From: a virus
Lineage: Duplodnaviria > Heunggongvirae > Uroviricota > Caudoviricetes
Direction: 5' to 3' (one strand)
IMG/VR virus record: IMGVR_UViG_2563366853_000005
Location: 1-36,255 of that record
Length of the DNA: 36,255 bases
This document shows positions 1 to 36,255 of the stretch, one piece after another (the stretch's first letter is position 1; every line of letters begins with the position of its first letter). The notes beneath the pieces are model-generated. The model was not told the DNA's origin, did not search any database, and saw only the letters and a program-made list of their open reading frames with translations. The translations under genes and the position numbers were made by a program.

Positions 1-1293
<1,293 letters not shown>

Positions 1294-21127: not shown

Positions 21128-22879
21128 ATGATTCAGGACGCTTTTGTGCGCCAGCGTGCGCGGCAACTTTACTGGCAGGGTTATCCGCCCGCAGAAATAT
21201 CACGTCTGATGGGAATAAACCCGAACACGATTTATGCGTGGAAAAAACGTGACCAGTGGGATGAAACGCCACCCGTGCAGCGTGTCACGCAGTCCATCGA
21301 TGCGCGCCTCATCCAGCTTACTGAAAAACAGAATAAAACAGGCGGTGACTTTAAGGAAATAGACCTGCTGACCCGGCAGCTTAAAAAGCTGCATGATGGC
21401 CAGCCGGATGTGATGGCCGCAGGAAAGAAAGGCCGGGCGAAAAAACTCAAAAATCATTTCACGCCGGAACAGATTGCCGCACTGCGGGAAAAAATCATCA
21501 GCAGGCTGGAGTGGCATCAGCGGGGCTGGTTTGACTCCCTGACCCTTTGCAGGGAAGCCGGGATACGTAACAGGATGATCCTGAAATCCCGACAGATTGG
21601 GGCGACCTGGTATTTTGCACAGGAAGCACTGCTGATGGCGCTGCGTGACGATGTGGCGCAACCTTACCAGCGTAACCAGATTTTTTTGTCTGCGTCGCGT
21701 CGTCAGGCGTTCCAGTTTAAAAGCATTATTCAGAAGGCCGCGGCTGAAGTTGATGTGGAGCTGAAAGGGGGCGATAAAATCATCCTCTCCAACGGCGCAG
21801 AGCTGCATTTTCTCGGCACTTCTGCTGCGTCGGCACAGTCCTATACGGGCAATTTTTATTTTGATGAATTTTTCTGGGTCAGTCGCTTTGCTGAACTGCG
21901 CAAGGTGGCTGGCGCTATAGCAACCCTCAGCGGACTGCGGCGCACCTACTTCTCCACGCCATCCACCGAAACGCACGAGGCATACGCCTACTGGAACGGC
22001 GACCGCTGGAACGAGAAAAAGGCCTCGCATAAACGCCAGCGTTTTTCTGTGGACTGGAAAACGCTGCATAACGGGCTTATCTGCCCTGACCGGACGTGGC
22101 GGCAAATTGTCACGCTGGAAGATGTGGTTAATCACGGCTGGAAACACACCGATATCGACGAAATTCGTGATGAAAACACCGAAGACGAGTTCCTCAATCT
22201 CTATATGTGTGAGTTTGTCCGCGAAGGGGAATCGGCATTTAACCTGAATATCCTGATTGGCTGCGGCGTTGACGGATACGACGACTGGAAAGACTGGAAA
22301 CCTTTTGCTCCCCGCCCGATGGGGAATCGTCCGGTATGGATTGGGTATGACGCAAACGGCAGCAGTGGCAACGGCGACAGCGGCGCTGTGTCCGTGGTGG
22401 TTCCTCCGTCTGTTCCTGGTGGCCGTTTTCGAACGGTGGAGACGCGACGCGTTCAGGGGCTGGAGTTTGAAGAACAGGCCAGAGTCATTGAAGAGTTCAC
22501 GTGTCGCTACAACGTGGAACACATCGGCATTGATGTGACGGGCGGGAACGGGGAGGCTGTTTATCAGATAGTGAAACGGTTTTTCCCTGCCGCTATTCCG
22601 TACACCTTCACGCTGTCATCAAAACGGTCGCTGGTACTGAAAATGCTGCAAATAATGCGTGCCGGGCGGTGGGAATACGATCGCGCCGAACGCGAGCTGG
22701 TCGCGGCCTTTAACGCCGTGCGTAAGGTGAAAACACCGGGCGGCTTTATCACTTACGAAACGGACCGAGCGAGGGGGATCAGCCACGGCGACCTTGCGTG
22801 GGCAACCATGCTTGCTGTCATTAACGAACCGATTGGCGGCGAAGGAGAAAACGAGCGTTTCACGGTTATGGAGTTCTGA
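21128..22879 (+). CDS. P: terminase large (ATPase) subunit gpP
   Basis: 583-aa ORF; position and size match P2 P; translationally coupled to Q (TGATG). Confidence 0.9.
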   Translation: MIQDAFVRQRARQLYWQGYPPAEISRLMGINPNTIYAWKKRDQWDETPPVQRVTQSIDARLIQLTEKQNKTGGDFKEIDLLTRQLKKLHDGQPDVMAAGKKGRAKKLKNHFTPEQIAALREKIISRLEWHQRGWFDSLTLCREAGIRNRMILKSRQIGATWYFAQEALLMALRDDVAQPYQRNQIFLSASRRQAFQFKSIIQKAAAEVDVELKGGDKIILSNGAELHFLGTSAASAQSYTGNFYFDEFFWVSRFAELRKVAGAIATLSGLRRTYFSTPSTETHEAYAYWNGDRWNEKKASHKRQRFSVDWKTLHNGLICPDRTWRQIVTLEDVVNHGWKHTDIDEIRDENTEDEFLNLYMCEFVREGESAFNLNILIGCGVDGYDDWKDWKPFAPRPMGNRPVWIGYDANGSSGNGDSGAVSVVVPPSVPGGRFRTVETRRVQGLEFEEQARVIEEFTCRYNVEHIGIDVTGGNGEAVYQIVKRFFPAAIPYTFTLSSKRSLVLKMLQIMRAGRWEYDRAERELVAAFNAVRKVKTPGGFITYETDRARGISHGDLAWATMLAVINEPIGGEGENERFTVMEF

Positions 22880-23925
22880 TGAGCAGAAAAAATAAAAAAG
22901 TGCGCATGAGTTCACGCATTGATCTCGCTGATGCGCTCAGGAAAGAATCATCGCTCAGTGCATTCACATTTGATGGTCCTTATCGCCTGACCGGGCATGA
23001 CCTGCTGGACAATATGTACTGTGCTGATAACGGGCGGTGGTATGAAACCCCGGTGGACTGGTACGGTCTGGCAAGAGCTGCCCGGCAAACGTCCTGGCAT
23101 CAGTCTGCGCTTTACTTTAAGCGCAATGTATTGCTCGGTTGCTACATCCCGCACCCGCTGCTTTCCCGGCAGGATTTCTCGGCGCTGGCGCTGGACTGGT
23201 TTGTGTTCGGTAACGCATTCCTTGAGCTTCGAAGCAATATGCTCGGCGAACCGCTTAAATTACGGCACGCACTGGCGAAATACATGCGACGCGGAAGCGA
23301 TCTTGAATCATGGTGGTATGTGCAGGATGGCAAGGATGCGTTTCAGTTTCGCCCAGGCAAAGTGTGTCACCTGATGAATCCTGACATTAACCAGGAAATC
23401 TACGGCATGCCGGAATATCTCGGCGCATTACTCTCGGCCAGCCTGTCTCATTCGGCGGACATGTTCAGAAAACTGTATTACGACAACGGATCCCACGCCG
23501 GGTGCATCATCTACATCGGTGCAGCGCAGGTAAACCGCGAAAGCATGGACTCCCTGAAAGAAACGCTACAGGGTGCGCGTGGTGGTGGTGCGTTTAAAAA
23601 CGTGCTCATTCATGCGCCCAACGGGGGCAAAGAGGGGGTGCAAATTTTGCCGTTCCAGCAGATCACCGCAAAGGATGAGTTCATGAATGTTAAGGCGGCA
23701 TCCCGTGATGATGTGCTGGCTGCGCACCGCGTTCCGCCGCAACTGATGGGGGCGATGCCGGGTGAAAAAAGTGCGTTTGGTGATGTGGAGAAGGCCGCGC
23801 GGGTTTACGCAATTAACGAGCTGATGCCCGTCATGGAGGCCATGAAGCACATCAATGACTGGCTTGGCGAAGAGGTGATCCGCTTTAACCCTTACGCACT
23901 GTTAGACATCCAGCCCACATCCTGA
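22879..23925 (+). CDS. Q: portal protein gpQ
   Basis: 348-aa ORF; position and size match P2 Q. Confidence 0.9.
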   Translation: MSRKNKKVRMSSRIDLADALRKESSLSAFTFDGPYRLTGHDLLDNMYCADNGRWYETPVDWYGLARAARQTSWHQSALYFKRNVLLGCYIPHPLLSRQDFSALALDWFVFGNAFLELRSNMLGEPLKLRHALAKYMRRGSDLESWWYVQDGKDAFQFRPGKVCHLMNPDINQEIYGMPEYLGALLSASLSHSADMFRKLYYDNGSHAGCIIYIGAAQVNRESMDSLKETLQGARGGGAFKNVLIHAPNGGKEGVQILPFQQITAKDEFMNVKAASRDDVLAAHRVPPQLMGAMPGEKSAFGDVEKAARVYAINELMPVMEAMKHINDWLGEEVIRFNPYALLDIQPTS

Positions 23926-24779: not shown

Positions 24780-26144
24780 ATGAATATAACTACTAATCAG
24801 AATGGTTTTGAGAATGGTTTTGATATTACATCTGACATATTTAATCGTAAGACATTATATGATCAAATGATACGGCTTATTATTAATGCTCCTGACTCAA
24901 ATTTGGTTTTTGCGTTAGATGATATATGGGGTAGCGGTAAAACATCATTTGTTAAGATGTTAAAATCAGAATTAGAATTAACTAATAGTGAATATATAGA
25001 TGTTGTTTATTTCGATGCATTTGAAAATGATTATCAATCAGATCCATTTATTTCAATATCATCTGAACTATATAATTTACTAAAACACAGAGGAGTAGAG
25101 GCCGAAGATGTAGCTGATCGCATTATTAAAACTGGTAAGAAAATAGGTGCAAAAATATTAATCGGAGGTGCAAAGGTAGCTATTACAACCCTGACAGCAG
25201 GTGTTGTGAATGGTTCTGCTCTTGATGAGGCAGGAAAAACAGTTAGCGATTCCATTAATAGTGAGTTAGAGTCTTTTGTTGAAGAGAAAATAAAATCCAT
25301 GGAGCAGGAAAAAAACTCAATTGCTGACTTTAAAAAAGCTTTAGAAGAAATATATACAAATACAAAGAGAAAAACCTTGATTATTATTGATGAACTTGAT
25401 CGAGCCCGCCCAGATTATTCTCTAGAGCTATTGGAAAAAATTAAGCATCTTTTTTCTGTGAAAGGTATGGTTTTCTTATTGGTAATGAATCGAGAGCAAT
25501 TTGAAAAGGGAATTGCATATAAATATGGTGATATCAATACTGGTCTGTACTTGAATAAATTTATTCATTATTGGTTTTCTTTGCCCAAAATAAATATGTA
25601 TGACTCTATGGTGTTACAAGCATCTAACAAAACAACGATTACAACGTATATTAAAAAAACTCTACAACAGAATCACTCTCTAGGTATTAATACAGATGGT
25701 GCTTTTGTAAGAGTCTTATCATGCTTGATTGAAACCAATAATTGCTCGCTGCGAGAAGTTGAACGATGTATTTCAACTATGCTTGTAGTGGATAATCATA
25801 CGTGTATAGCGAATAATGATGATAATTATTATATGATTGCATTAGCATTGGTTTGTTTCTTGAAAGTAACTTCTCCAGATATGTTAAATCGACTACTTAA
25901 GAAGGAAATGTCTTCTGAAGAGATATTAGAATTACTTAATATAAAATCTGATTATTTTTCATCAAAGACGGAAATTAAATTGCTTAAAGAACTATTGGAT
26001 TATTATTACATCGATAAAGAAACATTAAAACTATTACGTAATGAAAAGGGAAGTTATGTTCAGCGTATAGAAGGTGATTTTGCGTTTGAATATAACCATA
26101 TCTTTAATATTTCCACATCAATAGCTAATATGACTATAAAATAA
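24780..26144 (+). CDS. KAP-family P-loop NTPase (PifA-like), candidate anti-phage defence protein
   Basis: Walker A within DDIWGSGKTSF (aa 47-57, the WGSGK(T/S) form typical of KAP NTPases), Walker B LIIIDELDRA (aa about 199-208), a hydrophobic stretch GAKILIGGAKVAITTLTAGVV between them; GGAG RBS 5 nt upstream; visibly AT-rich relative to flanking phage genes. Confidence 0.8.
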   Translation: MNITTNQNGFENGFDITSDIFNRKTLYDQMIRLIINAPDSNLVFALDDIWGSGKTSFVKMLKSELELTNSEYIDVVYFDAFENDYQSDPFISISSELYNLLKHRGVEAEDVADRIIKTGKKIGAKILIGGAKVAITTLTAGVVNGSALDEAGKTVSDSINSELESFVEEKIKSMEQEKNSIADFKKALEEIYTNTKRKTLIIIDELDRARPDYSLELLEKIKHLFSVKGMVFLLVMNREQFEKGIAYKYGDINTGLYLNKFIHYWFSLPKINMYDSMVLQASNKTTITTYIKKTLQQNHSLGINTDGAFVRVLSCLIETNNCSLREVERCISTMLVVDNHTCIANNDDNYYMIALALVCFLKVTSPDMLNRLLKKEMSSEEILELLNIKSDYFSSKTEIKLLKELLDYYYIDKETLKLLRNEKGSYVQRIEGDFAFEYNHIFNISTSIANMTIK

Positions 26145-26364: not shown

Positions 26365-29127
26365 TTATTTGTTCCCACTCTTTACTCCTCTTCGCAGTAG
26401 GTCAGCTTTGTGGCAGGCGCGTTCGGTTGTTTCACAGATTCTTTGTGTGTGCTCTGTGTCGTGAATGGCGCGCAGCATGTCAGAAAGCACAGTAACGGGG
26501 GTTTTCATGGTGTTCTGGTCCTGCTGAAGTGTGGATGCCAGGCGTGCGGCGGCTTTGGGGTCTGATGCCCCCAGCTGTTCCAGATAGCTGGCGACCGGGT
26601 TATGGCGGATCTCCGTGCTGCTTACGCCGTGATTACGGCTCAGGCGCTGCCAGAGCTGCGTGATTCGGCTGTCCGGGCGGGTATCCGGTTTGCGTACAAT
26701 TTCAAATCCCTGCGGTGAAATGATGCTGCCGTCAACGTACAGACTGCCGCCCCGTAACAGGTGCTGCATCTGCTGTTCACCGATATGCAGGCCGAGAGAT
26801 TCAGCGGACTCCCGCCATTCTTTAGCGAGTAATTCGTGGTTATCAGGCAAAGGCCGCTGCTGTTTGCGGCTCTGTGTCCAGCTCTGCATTTCATCACTGC
26901 TGTTTTTTGCCTGTTTGTCACGCAGCGAACGCATCAGCGCCCGGCGTTCGTGCCGTTTCAGTGAGCGCATCCATTCATCCACATCAACGCCGTCAGGAAG
27001 CTGCGGCCACGGTGCTGGCCGTTCTTCCGGCTGTTCTGTCCCGTTGTTGTCCGTTTCCTGTACACGGGGACAGTTATTGCCACGAGTCCAAGGGGCGGCA
27101 GGGCCGCCCTGAAGGTCAAAACCATTTTCGCGGGCGCTGTCTTCCGCTTCCGGTTTGCGTCTTACCAGCTTCCAGTTATCCGGATGCGTGCACACACGGG
27201 AGGATTCCCCGATGAGTGGTGACCAGATCCCGTAAATCTGTACGCTCTGTTCGCCGTAATCGTTCAGCTCATCGGCGAGGTCGTAGGCGGTGCGAATCAG
27301 GTAGTCTTTGCGTGGAACAAGTACGCCGCCCTGTTTCTCTATGTAGGTGGCAAAACATCCTGCATCAGCGGCAGCGAGTACCGCATCCATTGCGTCATCC
27401 TTCAGCCGTTGCGGGCCTTCCGGGTTGCGTGCCATCTGGCTGGCAAGGCGGCGGAGTTCACGCCACACCTGACGGGAGGGGATGCCAAAGAACTGGAACT
27501 GGCGGACCCGGTGAAGGCGTGCCCAACCGATGGCGCGCTCCACGCTCTCGGCCATTGATTTTCCGGTTTCGTGGTCAACGCGTGGTTTGCCTGTTTTCTG
27601 GTCGATGCCATCCACGGCGCGGCTGTCCAGGTTTTTTCCGATGTAGGTGGCGATGTAGCTGGTTGGCGTGCCTTTTGAGCCGTCGACATACTCCGCCTTA
27701 AAGCGCGGAGTAATATCATCGCCCAGCTCGTGACGATCTTCCTGAATGGCAATATCGCGGGTGTGGGACACAATGGTGTCGATTTCTTCCGGATGAGCAA
27801 AGACCATCATATGCCAGTGCACGGTGCCGTCATGGTGAGGCTCCACCGTGCGGATGCCATACCAGCGCAGGCCGTCGCGGTTCAGTTTCTTGCGGACCGC
27901 TGCAAAAAACGTGTTAACCAGGTAATCGCTGGAGTCGCGCATGGTGGCCCCGTTCCATTTGGGATTCGGATGACCGTTCTCTGTTGTGGCGTGGTATTTT
28001 GACGGGCAGGTGACAGTCAGAAACACCGCTTTGTCGCCACGGGCTTCGGCCAGAAGTTCCAGCCCCTTCATGGTGGCCATCATTTCTGCCTTACGGTGAA
28101 CCGGGTTACTTACTCCCGCGTAATACACTGTCTCGAGATCAATCGTGAACCCGTCTTCGTTTTCCAGCATGAAACTTTTCAGGAAATCGCGTGTTTTCTC
28201 GCGCTGTGCGCGAAACTCGCTTAACGCGTCCTGGCTCAGATAGGGTGATGTTTTTCTGGAAACCAGACAGGCGGCGCGGAGTTGTTCTTCTCTCCACTCG
28301 CAACGTAACAGCCACAGTTTGCGTTTCCACCATTCCGCACAGGTCAGGCGAAGGATTGCGCCCGGCAGCAGCTCCGTGTCCGGTTCGTTCCTCCGGTCTT
28401 TATCTGTTGTCAGTGCGTCATAATGTGGAGGCATGATGTGCAGGTGTAACGCCATGCGGGCCAGCATCTGATACGCCTTCAGCGTTACATCCATGGTCAG
28501 TTCGCCATCGGTCGCGCCAAAGCCATCGCAGAGTTTTTCGAAGGTGCTGCTGAACATCGCCGCCGTCATGGTGGCCAGCGTCTGTATCTGGTGTTTGTTG
28601 AGCTGCGGCAGGTAAAGCAAATCGTCCAGGCGTTCGCGTCCGGCAAGGGAGCGATAACCCGGTGTCAGCCAGTGTCCGTCAGTGCGATCCAGACGTTCGA
28701 ATATTTTGCGCAGGGTTCCGCGTGCATAGCGTTCCGCCTGCCAGCTCTTTTTGCCTTTCCGGCGATCGGCTTCCTGTTTTTTGCGCAGGAAGGAGAGGTG
28801 GCGAATAAGTGGATCGCGCAGATAGGACGGCAGCAGGCGCAGCGAGGCCATGGCTTCATCCACCGCGCCGCGTGCCTGTTTTCTGGCGTCTCCTGCCAGT
28901 GCGATGGTTTTGTCCTGTTTTTCCTGTGCGTCCAGGCTTTTATTAATCAGGTTGCCCAGCGGCGTGGCGGAGAACGCCGCATCAGCCATTTTCTGGCGGC
29001 GCTCGTTCTCTGCCCGGTAGGCATCCAGCCAGGAGGAAAGCACGGATTCAGGAGCGGGGATCCCCGTTCCTTCACGCCCTACTGCGTGGCGCGGTTGTTG
29101 CCAGTCCCTGATGTACTCTGTCGTCAT
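26365..29127 (-). CDS. A: replication initiation protein gpA (rolling-circle HUH endonuclease); start uncertain, C-terminal extension relative to P2 A
   Basis: Blocks shared with P2 A including VEPHHDGTVHWHMMVF (P2: VEPHHDGTPHWHMML), FLTVTCPSKYH (P2: FITLTAPSKYH), YIATYIGKNLD (P2: YIAKYISKNID). Confidence 0.85.
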   Translation of the reverse strand: MTTEYIRDWQQPRHAVGREGTGIPAPESVLSSWLDAYRAENERRQKMADAAFSATPLGNLINKSLDAQEKQDKTIALAGDARKQARGAVDEAMASLRLLPSYLRDPLIRHLSFLRKKQEADRRKGKKSWQAERYARGTLRKIFERLDRTDGHWLTPGYRSLAGRERLDDLLYLPQLNKHQIQTLATMTAAMFSSTFEKLCDGFGATDGELTMDVTLKAYQMLARMALHLHIMPPHYDALTTDKDRRNEPDTELLPGAILRLTCAEWWKRKLWLLRCEWREEQLRAACLVSRKTSPYLSQDALSEFRAQREKTRDFLKSFMLENEDGFTIDLETVYYAGVSNPVHRKAEMMATMKGLELLAEARGDKAVFLTVTCPSKYHATTENGHPNPKWNGATMRDSSDYLVNTFFAAVRKKLNRDGLRWYGIRTVEPHHDGTVHWHMMVFAHPEEIDTIVSHTRDIAIQEDRHELGDDITPRFKAEYVDGSKGTPTSYIATYIGKNLDSRAVDGIDQKTGKPRVDHETGKSMAESVERAIGWARLHRVRQFQFFGIPSRQVWRELRRLASQMARNPEGPQRLKDDAMDAVLAAADAGCFATYIEKQGGVLVPRKDYLIRTAYDLADELNDYGEQSVQIYGIWSPLIGESSRVCTHPDNWKLVRRKPEAEDSARENGFDLQGGPAAPWTRGNNCPRVQETDNNGTEQPEERPAPWPQLPDGVDVDEWMRSLKRHERRALMRSLRDKQAKNSSDEMQSWTQSRKQQRPLPDNHELLAKEWRESAESLGLHIGEQQMQHLLRGGSLYVDGSIISPQGFEIVRKPDTRPDSRITQLWQRLSRNHGVSSTEIRHNPVASYLEQLGASDPKAAARLASTLQQDQNTMKTPVTVLSDMLRAIHDTEHTQRICETTERACHKADLLRRGVKSGNK

Positions 29128-30173: not shown

Positions 30174-31004
30174 TTACTTCACCGGAACAAACGGAACAGC
30201 GGTGTTGCTGGTCATGTATTGCGGCAGCGTGCCGTTCCATTTGTTGATTGCTTCCAGCTCCATAACGCCGGGATTCTGGCGCAGAGCTTCACCGCGTAAA
30301 CGAATGGCGTCGGCTTCAGCCTGGGCTTTTGTGCGAATGGCATCAGCCTGTCCGGCAGCTTCTGCGCGCAACATGTTGGCTTCAGCTTCGCGTTGCTTGA
30401 CTTCCTGTTCGCGTTGCAGGGTTTTCTGGTTTGCCGTGACTTTGGCATTAATGCTGTCGATAACGGTTGACGGGTACTCCGGCTTACCCACATATGAGAG
30501 GCTCATTACCTGAATACCGATAGGTGTCATTTCCTCCTGAATGTCTTTAAGAGCTGCATCCAGTAGTTCAGATTTCCCGCCGTCGATAAATTTGTCGGTG
30601 GTCATTTTGCTGGCCAGTCGGTTGAGTGCATCGGCGATCTTCTGGCGCAGGTCAGTGTCGGTAATGTCATCCACGCCTTTGCGGTAGGTCTGAAACACTG
30701 TAGTAACTTTGGATGGATCAACCTTGTAGGCCACACCGATGTGATAGCCGATGGTTGTGCCGTCACTCATCTGGAAGCTGAACGGCTCATCGTAGGTCTT
30801 CATTTGTTTGAAGGTCGGGAAGATGTAAACCTCGGTATTCCAGCCAGTCCAGTAGCGGCCAACGCCAACCACTTCGCCGACGCCTTTGTCGTCGCCCAGT
30901 TTGTTGACTTTGATGCCCACATTACCTGGCTCAACGCGATCGCAACCAACCAGCAGGATGGCGGCAAAAAGCGGGATAATCTGAAAGAGTTTGAATTTCT
31001 TCAT
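30174..31004 (-). CDS. SPFH / band-7 (stomatin-prohibitin-HflK/C-like) lipoprotein
   Basis: Lipoprotein signal MKKFKLFQIIPLFAAILLVG-C; SPFH-like core followed by an Ala/Glu-rich coiled coil (QREQEVKQREAEANMLRAEAAGQADAIRTKAQAEADAIRLRGEA); ATG overlaps the stop of the upstream small membrane protein gene (ATGA). Confidence 0.75.
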   Translation of the reverse strand: MKKFKLFQIIPLFAAILLVGCDRVEPGNVGIKVNKLGDDKGVGEVVGVGRYWTGWNTEVYIFPTFKQMKTYDEPFSFQMSDGTTIGYHIGVAYKVDPSKVTTVFQTYRKGVDDITDTDLRQKIADALNRLASKMTTDKFIDGGKSELLDAALKDIQEEMTPIGIQVMSLSYVGKPEYPSTVIDSINAKVTANQKTLQREQEVKQREAEANMLRAEAAGQADAIRTKAQAEADAIRLRGEALRQNPGVMELEAINKWNGTLPQYMTSNTAVPFVPVK

Positions 31005-31980: not shown

Positions 31981-32391
31981 CTATGCGTTAAATACGGCAC
32001 GTTGCGTGCCATCAATGAATGCGGCCTGAGTGCGTTCTATCAGGCGGAGATTTGTCAGAACTTCTGACTCTCTTACGGGGTAAGGGGTAATCAGGTATTT
32101 GTCCTGCAATTCGGCGATAATGATGTATTGCTGTAGCTCCGAGCCAATAATATGAATAAGGTGTCCAATGTCAGATAAATTCAGTCTGGTGGTTGGTTGT
32201 GTTTTGAGAACCGTTAGTTCAGCATCCTGTTTTTCGATGATTTCGGCTGCTTCGGCGGTTACTCTTGTTATCATCATGGCCGTGGTGGCAGGCCCAATCA
32301 TTCCTGCATTTGTTGCATCCTGAATGGCTCTGTTTGCGGTCTCCGATATATTTTTTAGCGCAGTTACAATGCCTTTTTCTTTTGCGTTCAT
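31981..32391 (-). CDS. hypothetical early protein (136 aa)
   Basis: ORF in the early operon. Confidence 0.55.
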   Translation of the reverse strand: MNAKEKGIVTALKNISETANRAIQDATNAGMIGPATTAMMITRVTAEAAEIIEKQDAELTVLKTQPTTRLNLSDIGHLIHIIGSELQQYIIIAELQDKYLITPYPVRESEVLTNLRLIERTQAAFIDGTQRAVFNA

Positions 32392-32484
32392 TTTTGTATC
32401 TCCATTATTTACGTGTGTGAATGCCTCCGTTAATTCGGATGGTTTTCACGTTTTCTTATTTAATCTGGTGTTTTATTTGTGCTG

Positions 32485-32598
32485 TTATTCGTCAGAGAAA
32501 AAACGCTCAATCTTTTTCACTGAATGAATAATTCGCATAATGCCAATAGCGCAGATCACCGAAATAATCAGAACAAGCCACGAGATAAATATACTCAT
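32485..32598 (-). CDS. candidate small single-TM peptide (37 aa; hand-translated, below ORF-track cut-off)
   Basis: ATG overlaps the stop of the upstream 80-aa gene (ATGA); translation MSIFISWLVLIISVICAIGIMRIIHSVKKIERFFSDE, a hydrophobic helix followed by a basic tail. Confidence 0.3.
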   Translation of the reverse strand: MSIFISWLVLIISVICAIGIMRIIHSVKKIERFFSDE

Positions 32599-32837
32599 GC
32601 GATATTCCCCAGCTTATACGGTTCAATATGTTCCCCGCATTCTGCGGCACAGATCAGCTCGGAAAGTTCGTTAAGTGCATCCAGATCATCAGCGTAAAAA
32701 GCCACGTCATACAGACTCCGGATTGCCCTGGTCAATGAGTCACGGGCTGCACGTTCAGCATGAGCGCCTGATGCACTTAAGCGAAAATAAAAACGCTCAA
32801 GTGCTTTGTTAATGAGAGTTTTATATTCTTTGCCCAT
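32595..32837 (-). CDS. hypothetical early protein (80 aa)
   Basis: ORF in the early operon. Confidence 0.5.
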   Translation of the reverse strand: MGKEYKTLINKALERFYFRLSASGAHAERAARDSLTRAIRSLYDVAFYADDLDALNELSELICAAECGEHIEPYKLGNIA

Positions 32838-32857
32838 TGTATTTTCCCGGAAAACAA

Positions 32858-33112
32858 TTAAACAAAATCTCTTAATGGTTTACCTGATTCAATGCGCTCA
32901 ATTGCATCGTTAATGGCCATGTATGCGGCGTGATCACCTGCATAGCGTGCGCATTCCTGTAGTGACTTTAATCCGCTGATAGTATCGCTTTTTGCTTCCG
33001 ATAAAGGTTTCACCGTATTTAATGCATCACGGGCATTATTATCTATGAGTCGGTGTATGATAAGAGTGTAGGCCGAGGCTATCTCTACCATGTTTTTTGT
33101 CGTTGTTGCCAT
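32858..33112 (-). CDS. hypothetical early protein (84 aa)
   Basis: ORF in the early operon. Confidence 0.5.
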   Translation of the reverse strand: MATTTKNMVEIASAYTLIIHRLIDNNARDALNTVKPLSEAKSDTISGLKSLQECARYAGDHAAYMAINDAIERIESGKPLRDFV

Positions 33113-33115
33113 TGG

Positions 33116-33466
33116 TTAATTCCCCCGTGGATGCTGAAAACTACGTCCTGCAATTAAGCGGTCAACCGTGCGTAGCGCTTCGTACAATGTAAAATCCTGT
33201 CCGAACTGATTGTCGCCGCAGCTCAATGCAAAAATGCGGTTTCCGGTAAACGGATTGCGTGGGCATTTGTGGACCACAATTCCAGCTTTCTCAATCAGCC
33301 AGGTATGCTCGCCGATTTGTTTTACTGGGTAGCCATCCGGCGTTGCGTGTGTTTCGCTCAGGCTGTAGCGAGAGTTGCTACGTGATGCACTGGTAGCGAA
33401 ACGGTTAGCGTGGCGTTCCGCACCGTTGCGGAAGCGCGGCTGTGAAGAATTGCGCTGTAGTTTCAT
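33116..33466 (-). CDS. hypothetical early protein (116 aa), first gene of a sub-operon
   Basis: ORF with a divergent intergenic region upstream (33467..33601). Confidence 0.5.
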   Translation of the reverse strand: MKLQRNSSQPRFRNGAERHANRFATSASRSNSRYSLSETHATPDGYPVKQIGEHTWLIEKAGIVVHKCPRNPFTGNRIFALSCGDNQFGQDFTLYEALRTVDRLIAGRSFQHPRGN

Positions 33467-33601
33467 ATTAAAACTCTGTACCTTCGGTAAGGTGTACTCG
33501 TGTCACCTTGTATTGATTTGTGGTATTTTTTGTGTGTCTAGGACTTGGACTGGCCGGTTCAGGTCCTGGCTTATGTTTAATTAAATTGTTTAGAGGTTTT
33601 C

Positions 33602-33793
33602 ATGTCAGAAGATAAAAAAGTTGTTAATTTGTTGAGTGACCTTAGTGCTGCTCTGGATAACATTAACCCTCCTAGGGTAAAAACGACGGGTGATAAAGAC
33701 GCATTAAACGCAGAGATTCATATATTACTGGCGTTAGTAACTGACAAAATTCAGCGTAAATACCCACCTGTCACACAACTGGTTGATTTTTAA
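33602..33793 (+). CDS. small hypothetical protein (63 aa) on the opposite strand, AT-rich
   Basis: AGAGG RBS 5 nt upstream; convergent with the 140-aa gene; hairpin 9 nt after its stop. Confidence 0.45.
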   Translation: MSEDKKVVNLLSDLSAALDNINPPRVKTTGDKDALNAEIHILLALVTDKIQRKYPPVTQLVDF

Positions 33794-33799
33794 TTTGAT

Positions 33800-34222
33800 T
33801 TATGCCGGGCTGCTCCCGGCATCTTCTAGCTGCCATAATGTCTCGTCACCTGATAGAGCAAAACGAAATGAGTGAAGTATATCCTCCCGAGAGAAGCTCA
33901 CGGCTACAGCTGCGGGAAAGTCAAATATAATCCCACCTTCATTTTTAAAACGATTACGCAATTGATAGGCTATCGGTTTGATTTGTGCAGGAAGAGTATC
34001 TATATCTCTTCCATTGACAACAGAATCTTTGTTTTCAAGTACTGATTTAGCGATTAGATATAGATGCCAGTAACTGGTTACAATTGTTACTCCTGTGATG
34101 TGTCGTAAATTAATTGCAATTCGTCCGTTATTATGTTTTTCCGCAAGGTATTTCAGGTTATCAATTAATGCTTGGTCATTTTTTGAAATAGTTATTGTGA
34201 AATCTGACGTGTTTGTTTTCAT
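33800..34222 (-). CDS. hypothetical protein (140 aa), AT-rich moron immediately downstream of cox
   Basis: AGAGG RBS about 11 nt upstream; starts 4 nt after the cox-like stop; visibly AT-rich. Confidence 0.6.
   Translation of the reverse strand: MKTNTSDFTITISKNDQALIDNLKYLAEKHNNGRIAINLRHITGVTIVTSYWHLYLIAKSVLENKDSVVNGRDIDTLPAQIKPIAYQLRNRFKNEGGIIFDFPAAVAVSFSREDILHSFRFALSGDETLWQLEDAGSSPA
33802..33822. other. GC hairpin between convergent genes (possible bidirectional terminator)
   Basis: AT-GCCGGG-ctgct-CCCGGC-AT; overlaps the last codons of the 140-aa gene; no clear U-run. Confidence 0.35.
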
Positions 34223-34226
34223 ACGA

Positions 34227-34748
34227 TTAGTTGCCTCTGTTGTTTCTGAGTTGGTTCAGTTTTGAGCTTCTGCCTGTATAAACTCGCTTACCGTTAATGG
34301 TCTGGCAGTCTTCTTTATTAGCTGGAGAGAACTTCCTTTTCTGGCGGTCATACGTCCAGTAACTTTTCCAGTTGTGCCATTCTGGGGGCTCGTGCTCTGG
34401 TAGCTCATCAGCCAACTTGTCCCACTCTTTGGCGTTAAACCACCATACTCCGTCTGAGTTTTCATCTTCCGGGTTTGTGCGCGTCTTGTGTCCCGGCATT
34501 TGACCGCGATGAATGGCTACGCGCAGTGCAGATTTTGTTAGCCCAATATATGCCGCGCCTTTTTCCAGAGAGCAAAGCCCGGCGATCGGACCATCCAGCC
34601 GTAAAGTCGCTCCTTTTTTGTAGGAACGCTTTTTCTTGTTTTCTTCGTGTTCGTCGTCGTTGGCGGCATCAATGGATCCGCTGAGTGTGTCACTTTCCTG
34701 AAGTGGTTGGTGGTCAGATAACTCTTTATCGGCAATGAAGTCCCGCAT
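34227..34748 (-). CDS. cox: Cox/Apl/AlpA-type excisionase-like HTH regulator with an acidic N-terminal extension (173 aa)
   Basis: HTH segment AAYIGLTKSALRVAIHRGQMPG followed by a Trp-rich region (GVWWFNAKEWDKL) as in excisionase-family proteins; AGAGGA RBS 7 nt upstream; divergent from the C repressor gene. Confidence 0.6.
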   Translation of the reverse strand: MRDFIADKELSDHQPLQESDTLSGSIDAANDDEHEENKKKRSYKKGATLRLDGPIAGLCSLEKGAAYIGLTKSALRVAIHRGQMPGHKTRTNPEDENSDGVWWFNAKEWDKLADELPEHEPPEWHNWKSYWTYDRQKRKFSPANKEDCQTINGKRVYTGRSSKLNQLRNNRGN

Positions 34749-34851
34749 TTGTTATCCTCTTGCGTTGGTGCGCTTGTTGCGCTTTGTGATGGTTTGTTTT
34801 GGTTTGTTTTCTTCACCATGTGGTGAAGAATGAAAAGAGGATACTCATCGT
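34749..34851. promoter_or_regulatory. immunity switch region between cox and C (candidate operators and face-to-face promoters)
   Basis: Tandem perfect direct repeat GGTTTGTTTT at 34791-34800 and 34801-34810; adjacent palindrome CTTCACCA-TG-TGGTGAAG at 34811-34828; P2 C is known to bind direct repeats flanking the early promoter. Confidence 0.6.
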
Positions 34852-35193
34852 ATGGTGAACATGTCAAGAGATTACGCCAAAAAACTAAAGGCGATCAGAA
34901 ATGCGGAAAAACTTACACAATCTCAGTTTTCGCAAGTAACGGGGGTTTCTGTAGGGACTATAGGAAATTATGAGTCTGGATATAAACCTGCGCGAATTGA
35001 GGTTGTAGAAAAAGTAATCCAAGTCGAGCGATTCGAAAAATACACTATGTGGATACTTCACGACAAAACATTTCCCGCTGCCGGGCAGGTTGCACCGGCT
35101 CTCTCTCTTGATGGCTCTATTCAGTCGGAGGGCGATCAGGTTTCAATCGGCATTACCCAAAAATCACCCCGATCAGGCCGCAATGTTGGCTGA
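34852..35193 (+). CDS. C: immunity repressor, P2 C-type
   Basis: ...LTQSQFSQVTGVSVGTIGNYESG... and FEKYTMWILHDKTFPAAGQVAPALS parallel P2 C (LSRQQLADLTGVPYGTLSYYESG..., FTKYTLWFMTNQIAPESGQIAPALA). Confidence 0.8.
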   Translation: MVNMSRDYAKKLKAIRNAEKLTQSQFSQVTGVSVGTIGNYESGYKPARIEVVEKVIQVERFEKYTMWILHDKTFPAAGQVAPALSLDGSIQSEGDQVSIGITQKSPRSGRNVG

Positions 35194-35262
35194 CTCTACA
35201 CATTGAGCGAATTACATATCGCAAGGAGTGTTTAGTTAATTTATCCGTTGGAGGGGCTAATC

Positions 35263-36255
35263 ATGTCGATTAAGCAACTCAAAGACGGACGTTATCAGGT
35301 CGATGTCAGACCGCAGGGGGCGGAAGGAAAGCGGATTCGAAAAATCTTTGCCCTGAAATCAAAGGCTCAGGAGTTTGAGAAGTATGTGTTACAGAACTTT
35401 CATGACAAGCCATGGCAGGCTAAGCCAGCTGATCAGCGGCGATTATCAGAGCTGCTTGATGCGTGGTGGATGCTTGATGGTCGTAATCAGGCTTACGGGG
35501 ATAGCTACAGGGTTAGGCTAGGGAAGGTTGTTCGTGAAATGGGAGATCCTCGCGCCAGTCAGATGACGCGAAAATTTATGCTTGAATATCGGTCAGAGAA
35601 ATTACAGGCTGGATTAATGCCGTCCAGTATTAATCGTGACTTATGCGTACTGTCTACCATGTTCACGGTGCTGATTGAAGCTGAGGTCTTTCACAACGCG
35701 AACCCTGTACGCGGTATACGAAAACTGAAAGTTCAGAACACAGAGATGGCCTTTCTTTCTGATGATGAGATTGAACGGCTTCTTGAGCGACTGGAGGGTG
35801 ATGCGCGTCGTGTTGCCATTCTGTGTCTTTCTACTGGTGCCCGATGGAGTGAAGCATCGGAACTACGTGGAGAGCATATCGTTGGCAACCGGGTGACGTT
35901 CTTTAACACCAAAAACGGAAAATCCCGTTCGGTTCCTGTGGCGGATTCGGTCGTGCCTCTGATTAAAACCCGTCGAACGGGGTTATTGTATCAGGTTGAT
36001 TATCTGAAGTTCCGGGAGATTCTTCAGGAGGTGAAACCGGATTTGCCGAAGGGGCAGGCTACGCATGTCATGCGTCATACATTTGCCACACACTTTATGA
36101 TGAATGGCGGAAATATTGTTACGTTGCAACGAATCCTGGGGCACGCAACGATTCAGCAAACAATGACGTACGCTCATTTTTCGCCGGACTTCTTACAGGA
36201 CGCGATCAACTTTAATCCGCTGGCTGAAAGTGTCCATAAACTGTCCATCGATTAG
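35263..36255 (+). CDS. int: tyrosine integrase, P2 Int family (start at ATG 35263; track start 35248 is TTG)
   Basis: MSIKQLKDGRYQVDVRPQG aligns to the P2 Int N-terminus (MAIKKLDDGRYEVDIRPTG); catalytic region ...HVMRHTFATHFMMNGGNIVTLQRILGHATIQQTMTYAHF with the conserved R, H-x-x-R and Y; GGAGGGG RBS 5 nt upstream; stop TAG at 36253-36255. Confidence 0.9.
   Translation: MSIKQLKDGRYQVDVRPQGAEGKRIRKIFALKSKAQEFEKYVLQNFHDKPWQAKPADQRRLSELLDAWWMLDGRNQAYGDSYRVRLGKVVREMGDPRASQMTRKFMLEYRSEKLQAGLMPSSINRDLCVLSTMFTVLIEAEVFHNANPVRGIRKLKVQNTEMAFLSDDEIERLLERLEGDARRVAILCLSTGARWSEASELRGEHIVGNRVTFFNTKNGKSRSVPVADSVVPLIKTRRTGLLYQVDYLKFREILQEVKPDLPKGQATHVMRHTFATHFMMNGGNIVTLQRILGHATIQQTMTYAHFSPDFLQDAINFNPLAESVHKLSID

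Follow-up and report, generated by a model that had tools for sequence, protein, structure and literature searches.

Introduction

The closest described counterparts of the locus analyzed here are the morons of P2, the oop/cII region of lambda, the early region of phage 186 and the two-gene toxin-antitoxin (TA) systems. The locus itself is a convergent gene pair, which we call big (140 amino acids, aa) and small (63 aa), located directly behind the cox gene of the prophage contained in IMG/VR record IMGVR_UViG_2563366853_000005; positions 1 to 36,255 of this record were analyzed, and this whole stretch of 36,255 nucleotides (nt) is referred to below as the window. In lambda, oop is a short unit that converges on cII and has its terminator inside the 3' end of this early gene. 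In phage 186, cII is placed directly after apl and the promoters of the region face each other; we know of no convergent small protein gene there. For P2-like phages, hotspots have been described between gpA and the portal gene (old/tin), at the Z/fun position in the tail region, and between a tail gene and the CI gene (bioRxiv 10.1101/2024.10.15.618418). In addition, according to a 2026 survey, the stretch from int to gpA accounts for 8% of P2-like prophage defence systems (PMC13586616).

The big/small locus shares with lambda oop/cII the layout of a short convergent unit whose terminator lies in the 3' end of an early gene, but its convergent unit encodes a conserved protein of 60-64 aa, and an antisense role is only proposed. 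It is comparable to cII, fil and dhr of phage 186 in that these are non-essential early genes just downstream of Cox/Apl in a P2-like phage; the pair produced no PHROG match at E<=0.01, the PHROG content for the 186 genes themselves not having been checked. Type II TA systems are likewise compact two-gene modules of mobile elements with one small acidic helical protein, whereas the pair described here is convergent instead of forming a co-directional autoregulated operon, has one partner in a lytic operon, carries no recognised toxin or antitoxin domain, and its larger partner occurs without the smaller one. The hydrophobic toxin and non-coding antisense RNA of type I systems such as txpA/RatA were not found either, both partners of the pair being hydrophilic conserved proteins.

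Like the P2 morons old, tin and Z/fun, the big/small cassette consists of AT-rich accessory DNA missing from close relatives; moreover, its small gene is a predicted self-contained unit opposing the phage operon, and the cargo of the slot is swapped between relatives. Unlike these morons, the cassette lies right after cox in the early operon and not in the gpA-portal or tail hotspots (bioRxiv 10.1101/2024.10.15.618418; PMC13586616), its products show no sequence or fold similarity to known moron products, and its small gene consistently has a partner in the lytic operon. In sum, a moron-like unit and an early accessory gene together occupy a variable slot, an arrangement of a familiar kind with uncharacterised products.

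Results and discussion

A convergent gene pair directly behind cox

Comparison of relatives shows that big and small are a pair of real genes inherited together across deeply diverged lineages, and that they form a conserved accessory cassette, placed directly behind cox, in P2-like prophages (Peduoviridae) of enterobacteria. Tentatively, and with a confidence that stays somewhat short of even, we read this cassette as composed of a lysogenic small gene and an early-lytic big gene. The features on which the following sections rely are listed here, with coding sequences as annotated by the Prokaryotic Genome Annotation Pipeline (PGAP).

33800..34222, minus strand: big gene, 140 aa, second gene of the early (cox) operon (open reading frame, ORF, and PGAP coding sequence)
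33602..33793, plus strand: small gene, 63 aa, acidic product, convergent with big (ORF and PGAP coding sequence)
33521..33529, plus strand: predicted extended -10 element TGGTATTTT, with the -10 hexamer at 33524-33529 (conserved TGnTAnnnT)
33538..33569, plus strand: putative leader stem-loop of 14 pairs including G-U, then a U-rich stretch (terminator-like match and fold)
33592-33596, plus strand: Shine-Dalgarno sequence AGAGG of the small gene, 5 nt 5' of the ATG at 33602 (read from the sequence)
33802..33822, no strand assigned: GC hairpin ATGCCGGG-CTGCT-CCCGGCAT, an exact 8-bp inverted repeat (-13.7 to -15.1 kcal/mol)
34227..34748, minus strand: Cox-family gene, 173 aa (Pfam Phage_Cox, E 1.9e-7; phrog_23196, E 4e-116); context, not in the pair
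33116..33466, minus strand: DUF4761 early gene (Pfam DUF4761, E 1.4e-65); downstream neighbour, context

The original prediction, made from the letters of the window, had described an AT-rich module of two convergent ORFs, one of 140 aa on the minus strand and one of 63 aa on the plus strand. Both exist exactly in this form and both are annotated by PGAP, which in strain UTI89 calls each product a hypothetical protein (WP_000856386.1 and WP_001287827.1). The ATG of big is located 4 nt past the stop codon of the preceding gene (gap 34223-34226), as had been noted, and the cox-like nature of this 173-aa ORF is supported by both Pfam and PHROG. It is the first gene of a minus-strand early operon that extends to the replication gene gpA (26365..29127). 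Only 6 nt (33794-33799) separate the big and small ORFs, and the ribosome-binding site attributed to the small gene is indeed present as AGAGG. The AT-richness was also evident, the GC content being 0.325-0.37 at 33900-34299 and 0.37-0.385 at 33500-33799, compared to 0.49-0.53 in the flanks.

The prophage resembles P88 and is P2-like; within the Peduoviridae it belongs to the genus Xuanwuvirus. In P88 itself, only 37 nt lie between cox and the DUF4761 gene, and the cassette is absent; likeness to P88 restarts at the DUF4761 gene, and the megablast match to P88 covers window positions 33162-33473 only. Other Xuanwuviruses carry different small ORFs in the post-cox slot. Two properties of morons, absence from a syntenic close relative (P88) and deviant base composition, were found here. 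The view that the slot is variable and holds an accessory module has been strengthened by the absence from P88, by the differences among Xuanwuviruses and by the swapping of cargo in relatives described below.

Distribution and conservation of the pair

Of 5426 complete E. coli genomes, 272 (about 5%) contain the module, with an identity of >=99% in 268 of them and of 95-99% in the other 4; among the carriers are the uropathogenic reference strain UTI89 and many isolates of sequence type 131 (ST131). It was also present in three records of induced phages or prophage-derived phages. A word-index homology search returned near-identical E. coli copies only, and the relatives found by a full HMMER search and a profile search came from E. 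coli and Salmonella only. As two family-pattern scans of 185,579 GTDB species-representative genomes revealed no relative, the cassette is strain-variable and narrow in range, apparently restricted to prophages of the E. coli/Salmonella type.

The full HMMER scan, run against 1.84 billion representatives, identified two distant relatives of big with 30-34% identity; a third match, to the repeat protein P0015, was judged spurious. The profile search added a dozen E. coli and Salmonella relatives of 131-147 aa together with two fused forms of 225 and 234 aa. These 131-147-aa homologues, encoded in Salmonella and E. coli P2-like prophages, are 17-35% identical to big. Homologues of small are 60-64 aa long and share the pattern MxEDxKxIxLLKD...KYP, and one of them is convergent to every intact big homologue inspected, with the exception of locus L028.

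In all, at least six diverged lineages of E. coli and Salmonella P2-like prophages have the pair behind cox or apl: that of the window, KY174/L012, L009/L027, L024/L025, L026 and L039. This is the outcome of the comparative genomics of the slot that the original prediction had proposed. The genes around the pair differ, with neighbouring Cox/Apl types of 173-192 aa, 135 aa, 103 aa or an Arc+Apl-like arrangement, and downstream genes that vary too. The layout is maintained, the small ORF lying a few nt from big or overlapping it by 4 nt at the 3' ends (L009, L024, L025 and L039). Between main lineages, big proteins are 12-35% identical and small proteins 25-45% identical; synonymous sites are saturated (pS, the proportion of synonymous differences, 0.6-0.9), and the proteins can still be aligned.

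More informative ratios were obtained from pairs of intermediate divergence, in which the ratio of nonsynonymous to synonymous differences (pN/pS) ranged over both genes from 0.18 to 0.41. For big, pN/pS was 0.41 between L024 and L025 and 0.40 between L026 and L039, and the corresponding substitution-rate ratio (dN/dS) was 0.19 between KY174 and L012. For small, pN/pS was 0.18 (L024 vs L025) and 0.24 (L026 vs L039). Judged by these low ratios, both ORFs are real protein-coding genes under purifying selection and belong to small, fast-evolving families. Big evolves faster than small in the intermediate pairs, with 87% vs 97% aa identity and pN values of 0.26 vs 0.06 and 0.25 vs 0.14. It had been considered at the outset that the ORFs might lack conservation in relatives or turn out to be routine early genes of known function; the two ORFs are in fact conserved, and no known gene corresponds to either.

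Predicted transcription signals of the small gene

In each of the nine loci analyzed (9/9), the 150 nt 5' of the small gene, or of the cargo replacing it, contain exactly one TGnTAnnnT, located either 43 nt or 75-81 nt 5' of the ATG, in surroundings that cannot be aligned between lineages. By our own estimate about 0.15 such motifs are expected per 150 nt, in what was a post hoc test; on the same post hoc basis, the chance of a similarly placed motif in four mutually unalignable lineages is roughly 5e-4. A consensus promoter scan did not call the window's copy, TGGTATTTT, which is without a -35 element. In comparison with the prophage of the ST131 strain JJ1886, to which the window is near-identical at ~33300-34780 and from 35100 on, the promoter region is nearly unchanged, with 2 extra T in the T-run right after the -10. 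The absence of co-variation with the repressor gene C argues for a small-gene promoter independent of C. Given this and the predicted promoter of its own, the small gene is probably active in the lysogen.

The stem-loop downstream of the -10 element folds with -21.5 kcal/mol on the plus strand (z-score -2.56) and with -7.8 kcal/mol on the minus strand (z-score -0.59), and positions 33538-33569 did not appear as a DNA inverted repeat in the repeat search. Because it is stable on the plus strand only and is not a DNA inverted repeat, the leader is best regarded as a candidate RNA element of the small gene. Analogous leader hairpins were observed in L009, L011 and L024-L027. An Rfam search at E<=1 over 32800-35300 gave no match for the leader or the hairpins.

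At the other end of the small gene, the GC hairpin at 33802-33822 begins 8 nt past the stop codon. The original prediction had placed it between the two genes; the exact 8-bp repeat is real, but it lies inside big, spanning the last ~7 codons of this ORF. It is a probable terminator of the small gene, and a weak one in the window, where the hairpin is followed only by ATCTTCT. The homologous hairpin of KY174/L012 is followed by TTTTTCTTTT in the direction of the small gene, and a hairpin with a T-run is present after the small stop codon in KY174/L012, L024, L025 and L026. As none of these hairpins has a T-run in the direction of the early operon, early transcription should pass through them.

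With its putative promoter, leader, Shine-Dalgarno sequence, ORF and hairpin, the small gene looks like a moron in its anatomy, that is, an autonomous transcription unit on the opposite strand. A promoter and terminator of its own are the further mark of a moron, and the extended -10 and the hairpins are predicted for the small gene only, with the weak tail in the window. The big gene is without a promoter of its own and forms part of the cox operon; it can only be expressed from the C-repressed early promoter.

An additional conserved segment lies 5' of the small-gene promoter in two relatives. A spacer of ~100 nt (L009 4620..4740; L011 5260..5380), with the sequence GTACC.GGAT..CCCGCCCGGCTGG.TGCCGTGGTTTAGGCTGCGAACGGCGAGCAGCTTGTGCTATGTT, is near-identical between them, the genes on either side being different. 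This spacer could have a regulatory role or form a structured RNA.

The two proteins have no known relatives

Neither protein has Pfam, PHROG, PDB or fold relatives, and the products are uncharacterised. The window's big and small proteins had no match in Pfam, NCBIfam, PHROGs at E<=0.01 or PADLOC-DB v2 at E<=1, and when Pfam was applied to all family members only scattered single-member matches were obtained (best E 0.0023). Profile searches of the PDB with big and with small produced no sequence relative. AlphaFold2 modelling of big from a 9-sequence alignment reached a predicted local distance difference test (pLDDT) score of 59, with a predicted alpha/beta protein and no match in fold searches using this model. 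The model of small (pLDDT 69.5) places helices at residues 3-21 and 31-53, a predicted two-helix hairpin, and a Foldseek search of it against the PDB returned zero matches. No helix-turn-helix (HTH), ribbon-helix-helix (RHH), AbrB or other DNA-binding domain was detected in either protein, no known toxin fold was found for either, and a literature search by the RefSeq protein accessions yielded no paper mentioning them. The sensitive homology and structure searches proposed with the original prediction were in this way carried out for both proteins and led to no known family or fold.

Both proteins are hydrophilic, with grand average of hydropathy values of -0.16 to -0.88, and big proteins are acidic (isoelectric point, pI, 5.5-6.4). 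The invariant residues of the big family, L23, L26, T49 and Y51, are mostly hydrophobic and include no catalytic signature, which suggests that big is a binding protein rather than an enzyme.

Variation of the post-cox slot

Every small homologue found adjoins a big homologue, and small was never seen without big, in what is a small sample. Departures from the complete pair concern the partner of big. In L028 (E. coli JNEC-KY172), small is replaced by ORFs of 172 and 107 aa and big is kept. Here (L028 1668..2487), a small-gene promoter and leader of the KY174 type precede, and presumably drive, the unrelated 107-aa ORF, on which the 172-aa early-strand ORF converges with a 23-nt overlap; neither ORF matched Pfam or PADLOC. 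In L011 (4001..5237), a promoter and leader of the L009 type likewise appear to drive a 168-aa ORF that stands in place of small. Fusion of big was observed in L011 and in L026 (3001..3678), where it is joined to the C-terminal part of a downstream early gene of 259-292 aa, giving proteins of 234 and 225 aa; L026 contains one complete pair followed by this second, fused big gene.

Other insertions surround complete pairs. In the Salmonella prophage L009 (4766..5804), a second convergent pair comes right after big/small, made of a 259-aa early-strand gene and a 103-aa opposite-strand gene with a 53-nt overlap, and the 103-aa gene also follows the fused big in L026. This suggests that convergent pairs recur in the early region. 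In L027 (229..633) and L039 (3685..4080), an ORF of 131-134 aa is inserted between cox and big; this ORF weakly resembles the N-terminal end of the GPO capsid-scaffold protease family, at an E value of 0.018 that is below threshold.

Possible function of the pair and alternative explanations

Within the preferred reading of a lysogenic small gene paired with an early-lytic big gene, a joint mechanism can be proposed, which we consider rather doubtful, in which the two genes are expressed in a mutually exclusive manner and small holds big in check. The small protein would be made from the repressed prophage and the big protein only once the early promoter fires, mutual exclusion resulting from the convergence of the two transcripts, which would overlap in antisense over as many as ~290 nt. 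In the lysogen, the small product might restrain the early protein, whether this comes from leaky expression or is brought in by a superinfecting relative. On induction, the strong early promoter would read over the small-gene promoter, freeing big for action on a target in the host or in a competitor.

Several observations weigh against this reading. Big occurs without small in L028, in L011 and in the second L026 cassette. The mostly hydrophobic invariant residues of big provide no catalytic clue. All three transcription signals of small (promoter, leader and terminator) are predicted ones, and in the window the tail behind the terminator hairpin, ATCTTCT, is weak. Finally, the divergence at synonymous sites (dS) between KY174 and L012 is 0.36 for big, 0.026 for small and 0.057 for cox; with big diverged and both small and cox near-identical, recombination uncouples the alleles of the two genes. 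If the pair is nevertheless regulated as proposed, it would illustrate the way in which a temperate phage prevents an early-lytic accessory protein from doing harm in the lysogen, and would make the post-cox slot a place to seek new genes of phage-host or phage-phage conflict. A broader extension, which we regard as unlikely, is that the slot is a hotspot of undescribed convergent pairs of a lytic effector and a lysogenic antidote, big/small being the commonest; the 172/107-aa pair of L028 and the 259/103-aa pair of L009 may then be further examples.

The alternative that survives best, possible and still on the doubtful side, is that two functionally unrelated genes share a permissive slot, small being a lysogen moron and big an early accessory gene, for instance for anti-defence or host takeover. 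The cargo under the conserved promoter and leader was swapped with big kept in L028, and swapped with big fused in L011, and big and small alleles recombine independently, as would be expected of unrelated neighbours. Against this, big and small are found together in at least six lineages, in spite of protein identities of only 12-45% and different flanking genes, and small was never found without big. Big evolving faster than small in every intermediate comparison fits an arms-race protein, and the int-gpA interval is reported to hold 8% of P2-like prophage defence systems (PMC13586616), but the location of the small terminator inside the 3' end of big, or the 4-nt ORF overlap in its place, points to evolution as one block. 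Two unrelated morons would amount to routine prophage mosaicism.

For the three remaining explanations, the defining features were tested and mostly not found. Of these, the one that fares best, quite unlikely as it is, takes the locus as a mainly transcriptional or antisense device in which convergent transcription from the small-gene promoter insulates or times cox read-through into the early and replication genes, the proteins being secondary. Such a device would be comparable to oop RNA of lambda in its action on cII, or to the face-to-face promoters of phage 186. The conserved promoter element, the strand-specific leader hairpin with its U-rich tract, and the retention of both promoter and leader when the ORF behind them is replaced could all be understood in this way, but both ORFs are under protein-level purifying selection and nothing in Rfam matched. 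Similarly, transcription of the early operon has to cross the small-gene promoter and, with no promoter-like site found for the DUF4761 gene, the downstream early genes probably depend on read-through; P88, however, functions without the cassette.

A toxin-antitoxin or abortive-infection defence system, as which a two-gene AT-rich prophage-borne cassette with a small, acidic, helical, antitoxin-sized protein might be interpreted, is improbable. No PADLOC or Pfam match and no HTH, RHH or AbrB domain was detected, the genes are convergent and not in one operon, and big, being in the lytic operon, would be silent in the lysogen; moreover, big is found without small, the opposite of what would be expected of a toxin. 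The functions suggested in the original prediction (anti-defence, exclusion or toxin-antitoxin-like) found no backing in PADLOC, Pfam, NCBIfam, PHROG or fold searches, and classical TA features are absent; its broader interpretation as an accessory module has stood, but not these specific functional guesses.

Finally, an establishment module like CII/pE of phage 186, in which big would activate the small-gene promoter and its transcript run antisense through cox into C and int, is highly improbable: big does occupy the position of 186 cII, straight after apl/cox, and the small-gene promoter points to C and int and is without a -35 like many activator-dependent promoters, but the HTH activator and unterminated antisense promoter of CII/pE are not features of the cassette, where no HTH or other DNA-binding domain was found, big is acidic (pI 5.5-6.4), a conserved protein is encoded behind the promoter, a hairpin with T-run terminator follows small in KY174/L012, L024, L025 and L026, and P88 is without the module.

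Neighbouring genes and other observations

The left end of the window is serS (1..1293; tRNA-synt_2b and Seryl_tRNA_N domains) and its right end is the stop codon of the phage integrase gene (35248..36255). The studied region is 99.9% identical to UTI89, where dmsA comes after the integrase, placing the prophage between serS and dmsA. The plus strand carries the integrase and a C-type HTH repressor at 34852..35193 (HTH_3, E 5.6e-10; phrog_147, E 3e-28).

When the window is set against the ST131 (JJ1886) prophage, replacement is confined to the C gene with its promoter/operator region (34780..35100), at ~40% mismatches and a C dS of ~1.0. The difference is an immunity (repressor) swap with the same Cox, cox, big, small and int being near-identical. 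A claim that the cassette is more conserved than the immunity region was dropped, since all four of these genes are near-identical and just C and the operators are swapped. In TraDIS data for the ST131 strain EC958 (PMC11481867), one prophage gene, EC958_1050, is non-essential.

Upstream of the DUF4761 gene, two features of the original prediction did not withstand inspection. A near-palindrome at 33478-33497 does exist in the sequence, but it was missed by a repeat search with a 6-nt seed and 8-nt repeats, its RNA fold is no better than that of shuffled sequences (z-score -0.15), and KY174, P88 and P88_4B11, the relatives inspected, do not conserve it. A divergent upstream region belonging to the DUF4761 gene had also been assumed; a promoter-like site for this gene was looked for in the spacer 33467-33601 and none was found.

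Elsewhere in the window, a 454-aa KAP-family P-loop NTPase is encoded on the plus strand at 24780..26144 (PADLOC candidate PDC-S20, E 8e-76; Pfam KAP_NTPase, E 1.8e-38). Located in the interval from the portal gene (22879..23925) to gpA (26365..29127), the NTPase gene occupies the canonical old/tin hotspot for defence genes in P2-like phages. The early operon further contains an SPFH/Band 7 protein gene (30174..31004, minus strand; E 1.8e-30). A second AT-rich patch, with a GC content of 0.36-0.37 at 32300-32600, includes a hydrophobic 37-aa ORF on the minus strand (32485..32598, MSIFISWLVLIISVICAIGIMRII...), which is annotated in RefSeq and termed a membrane protein in P88.

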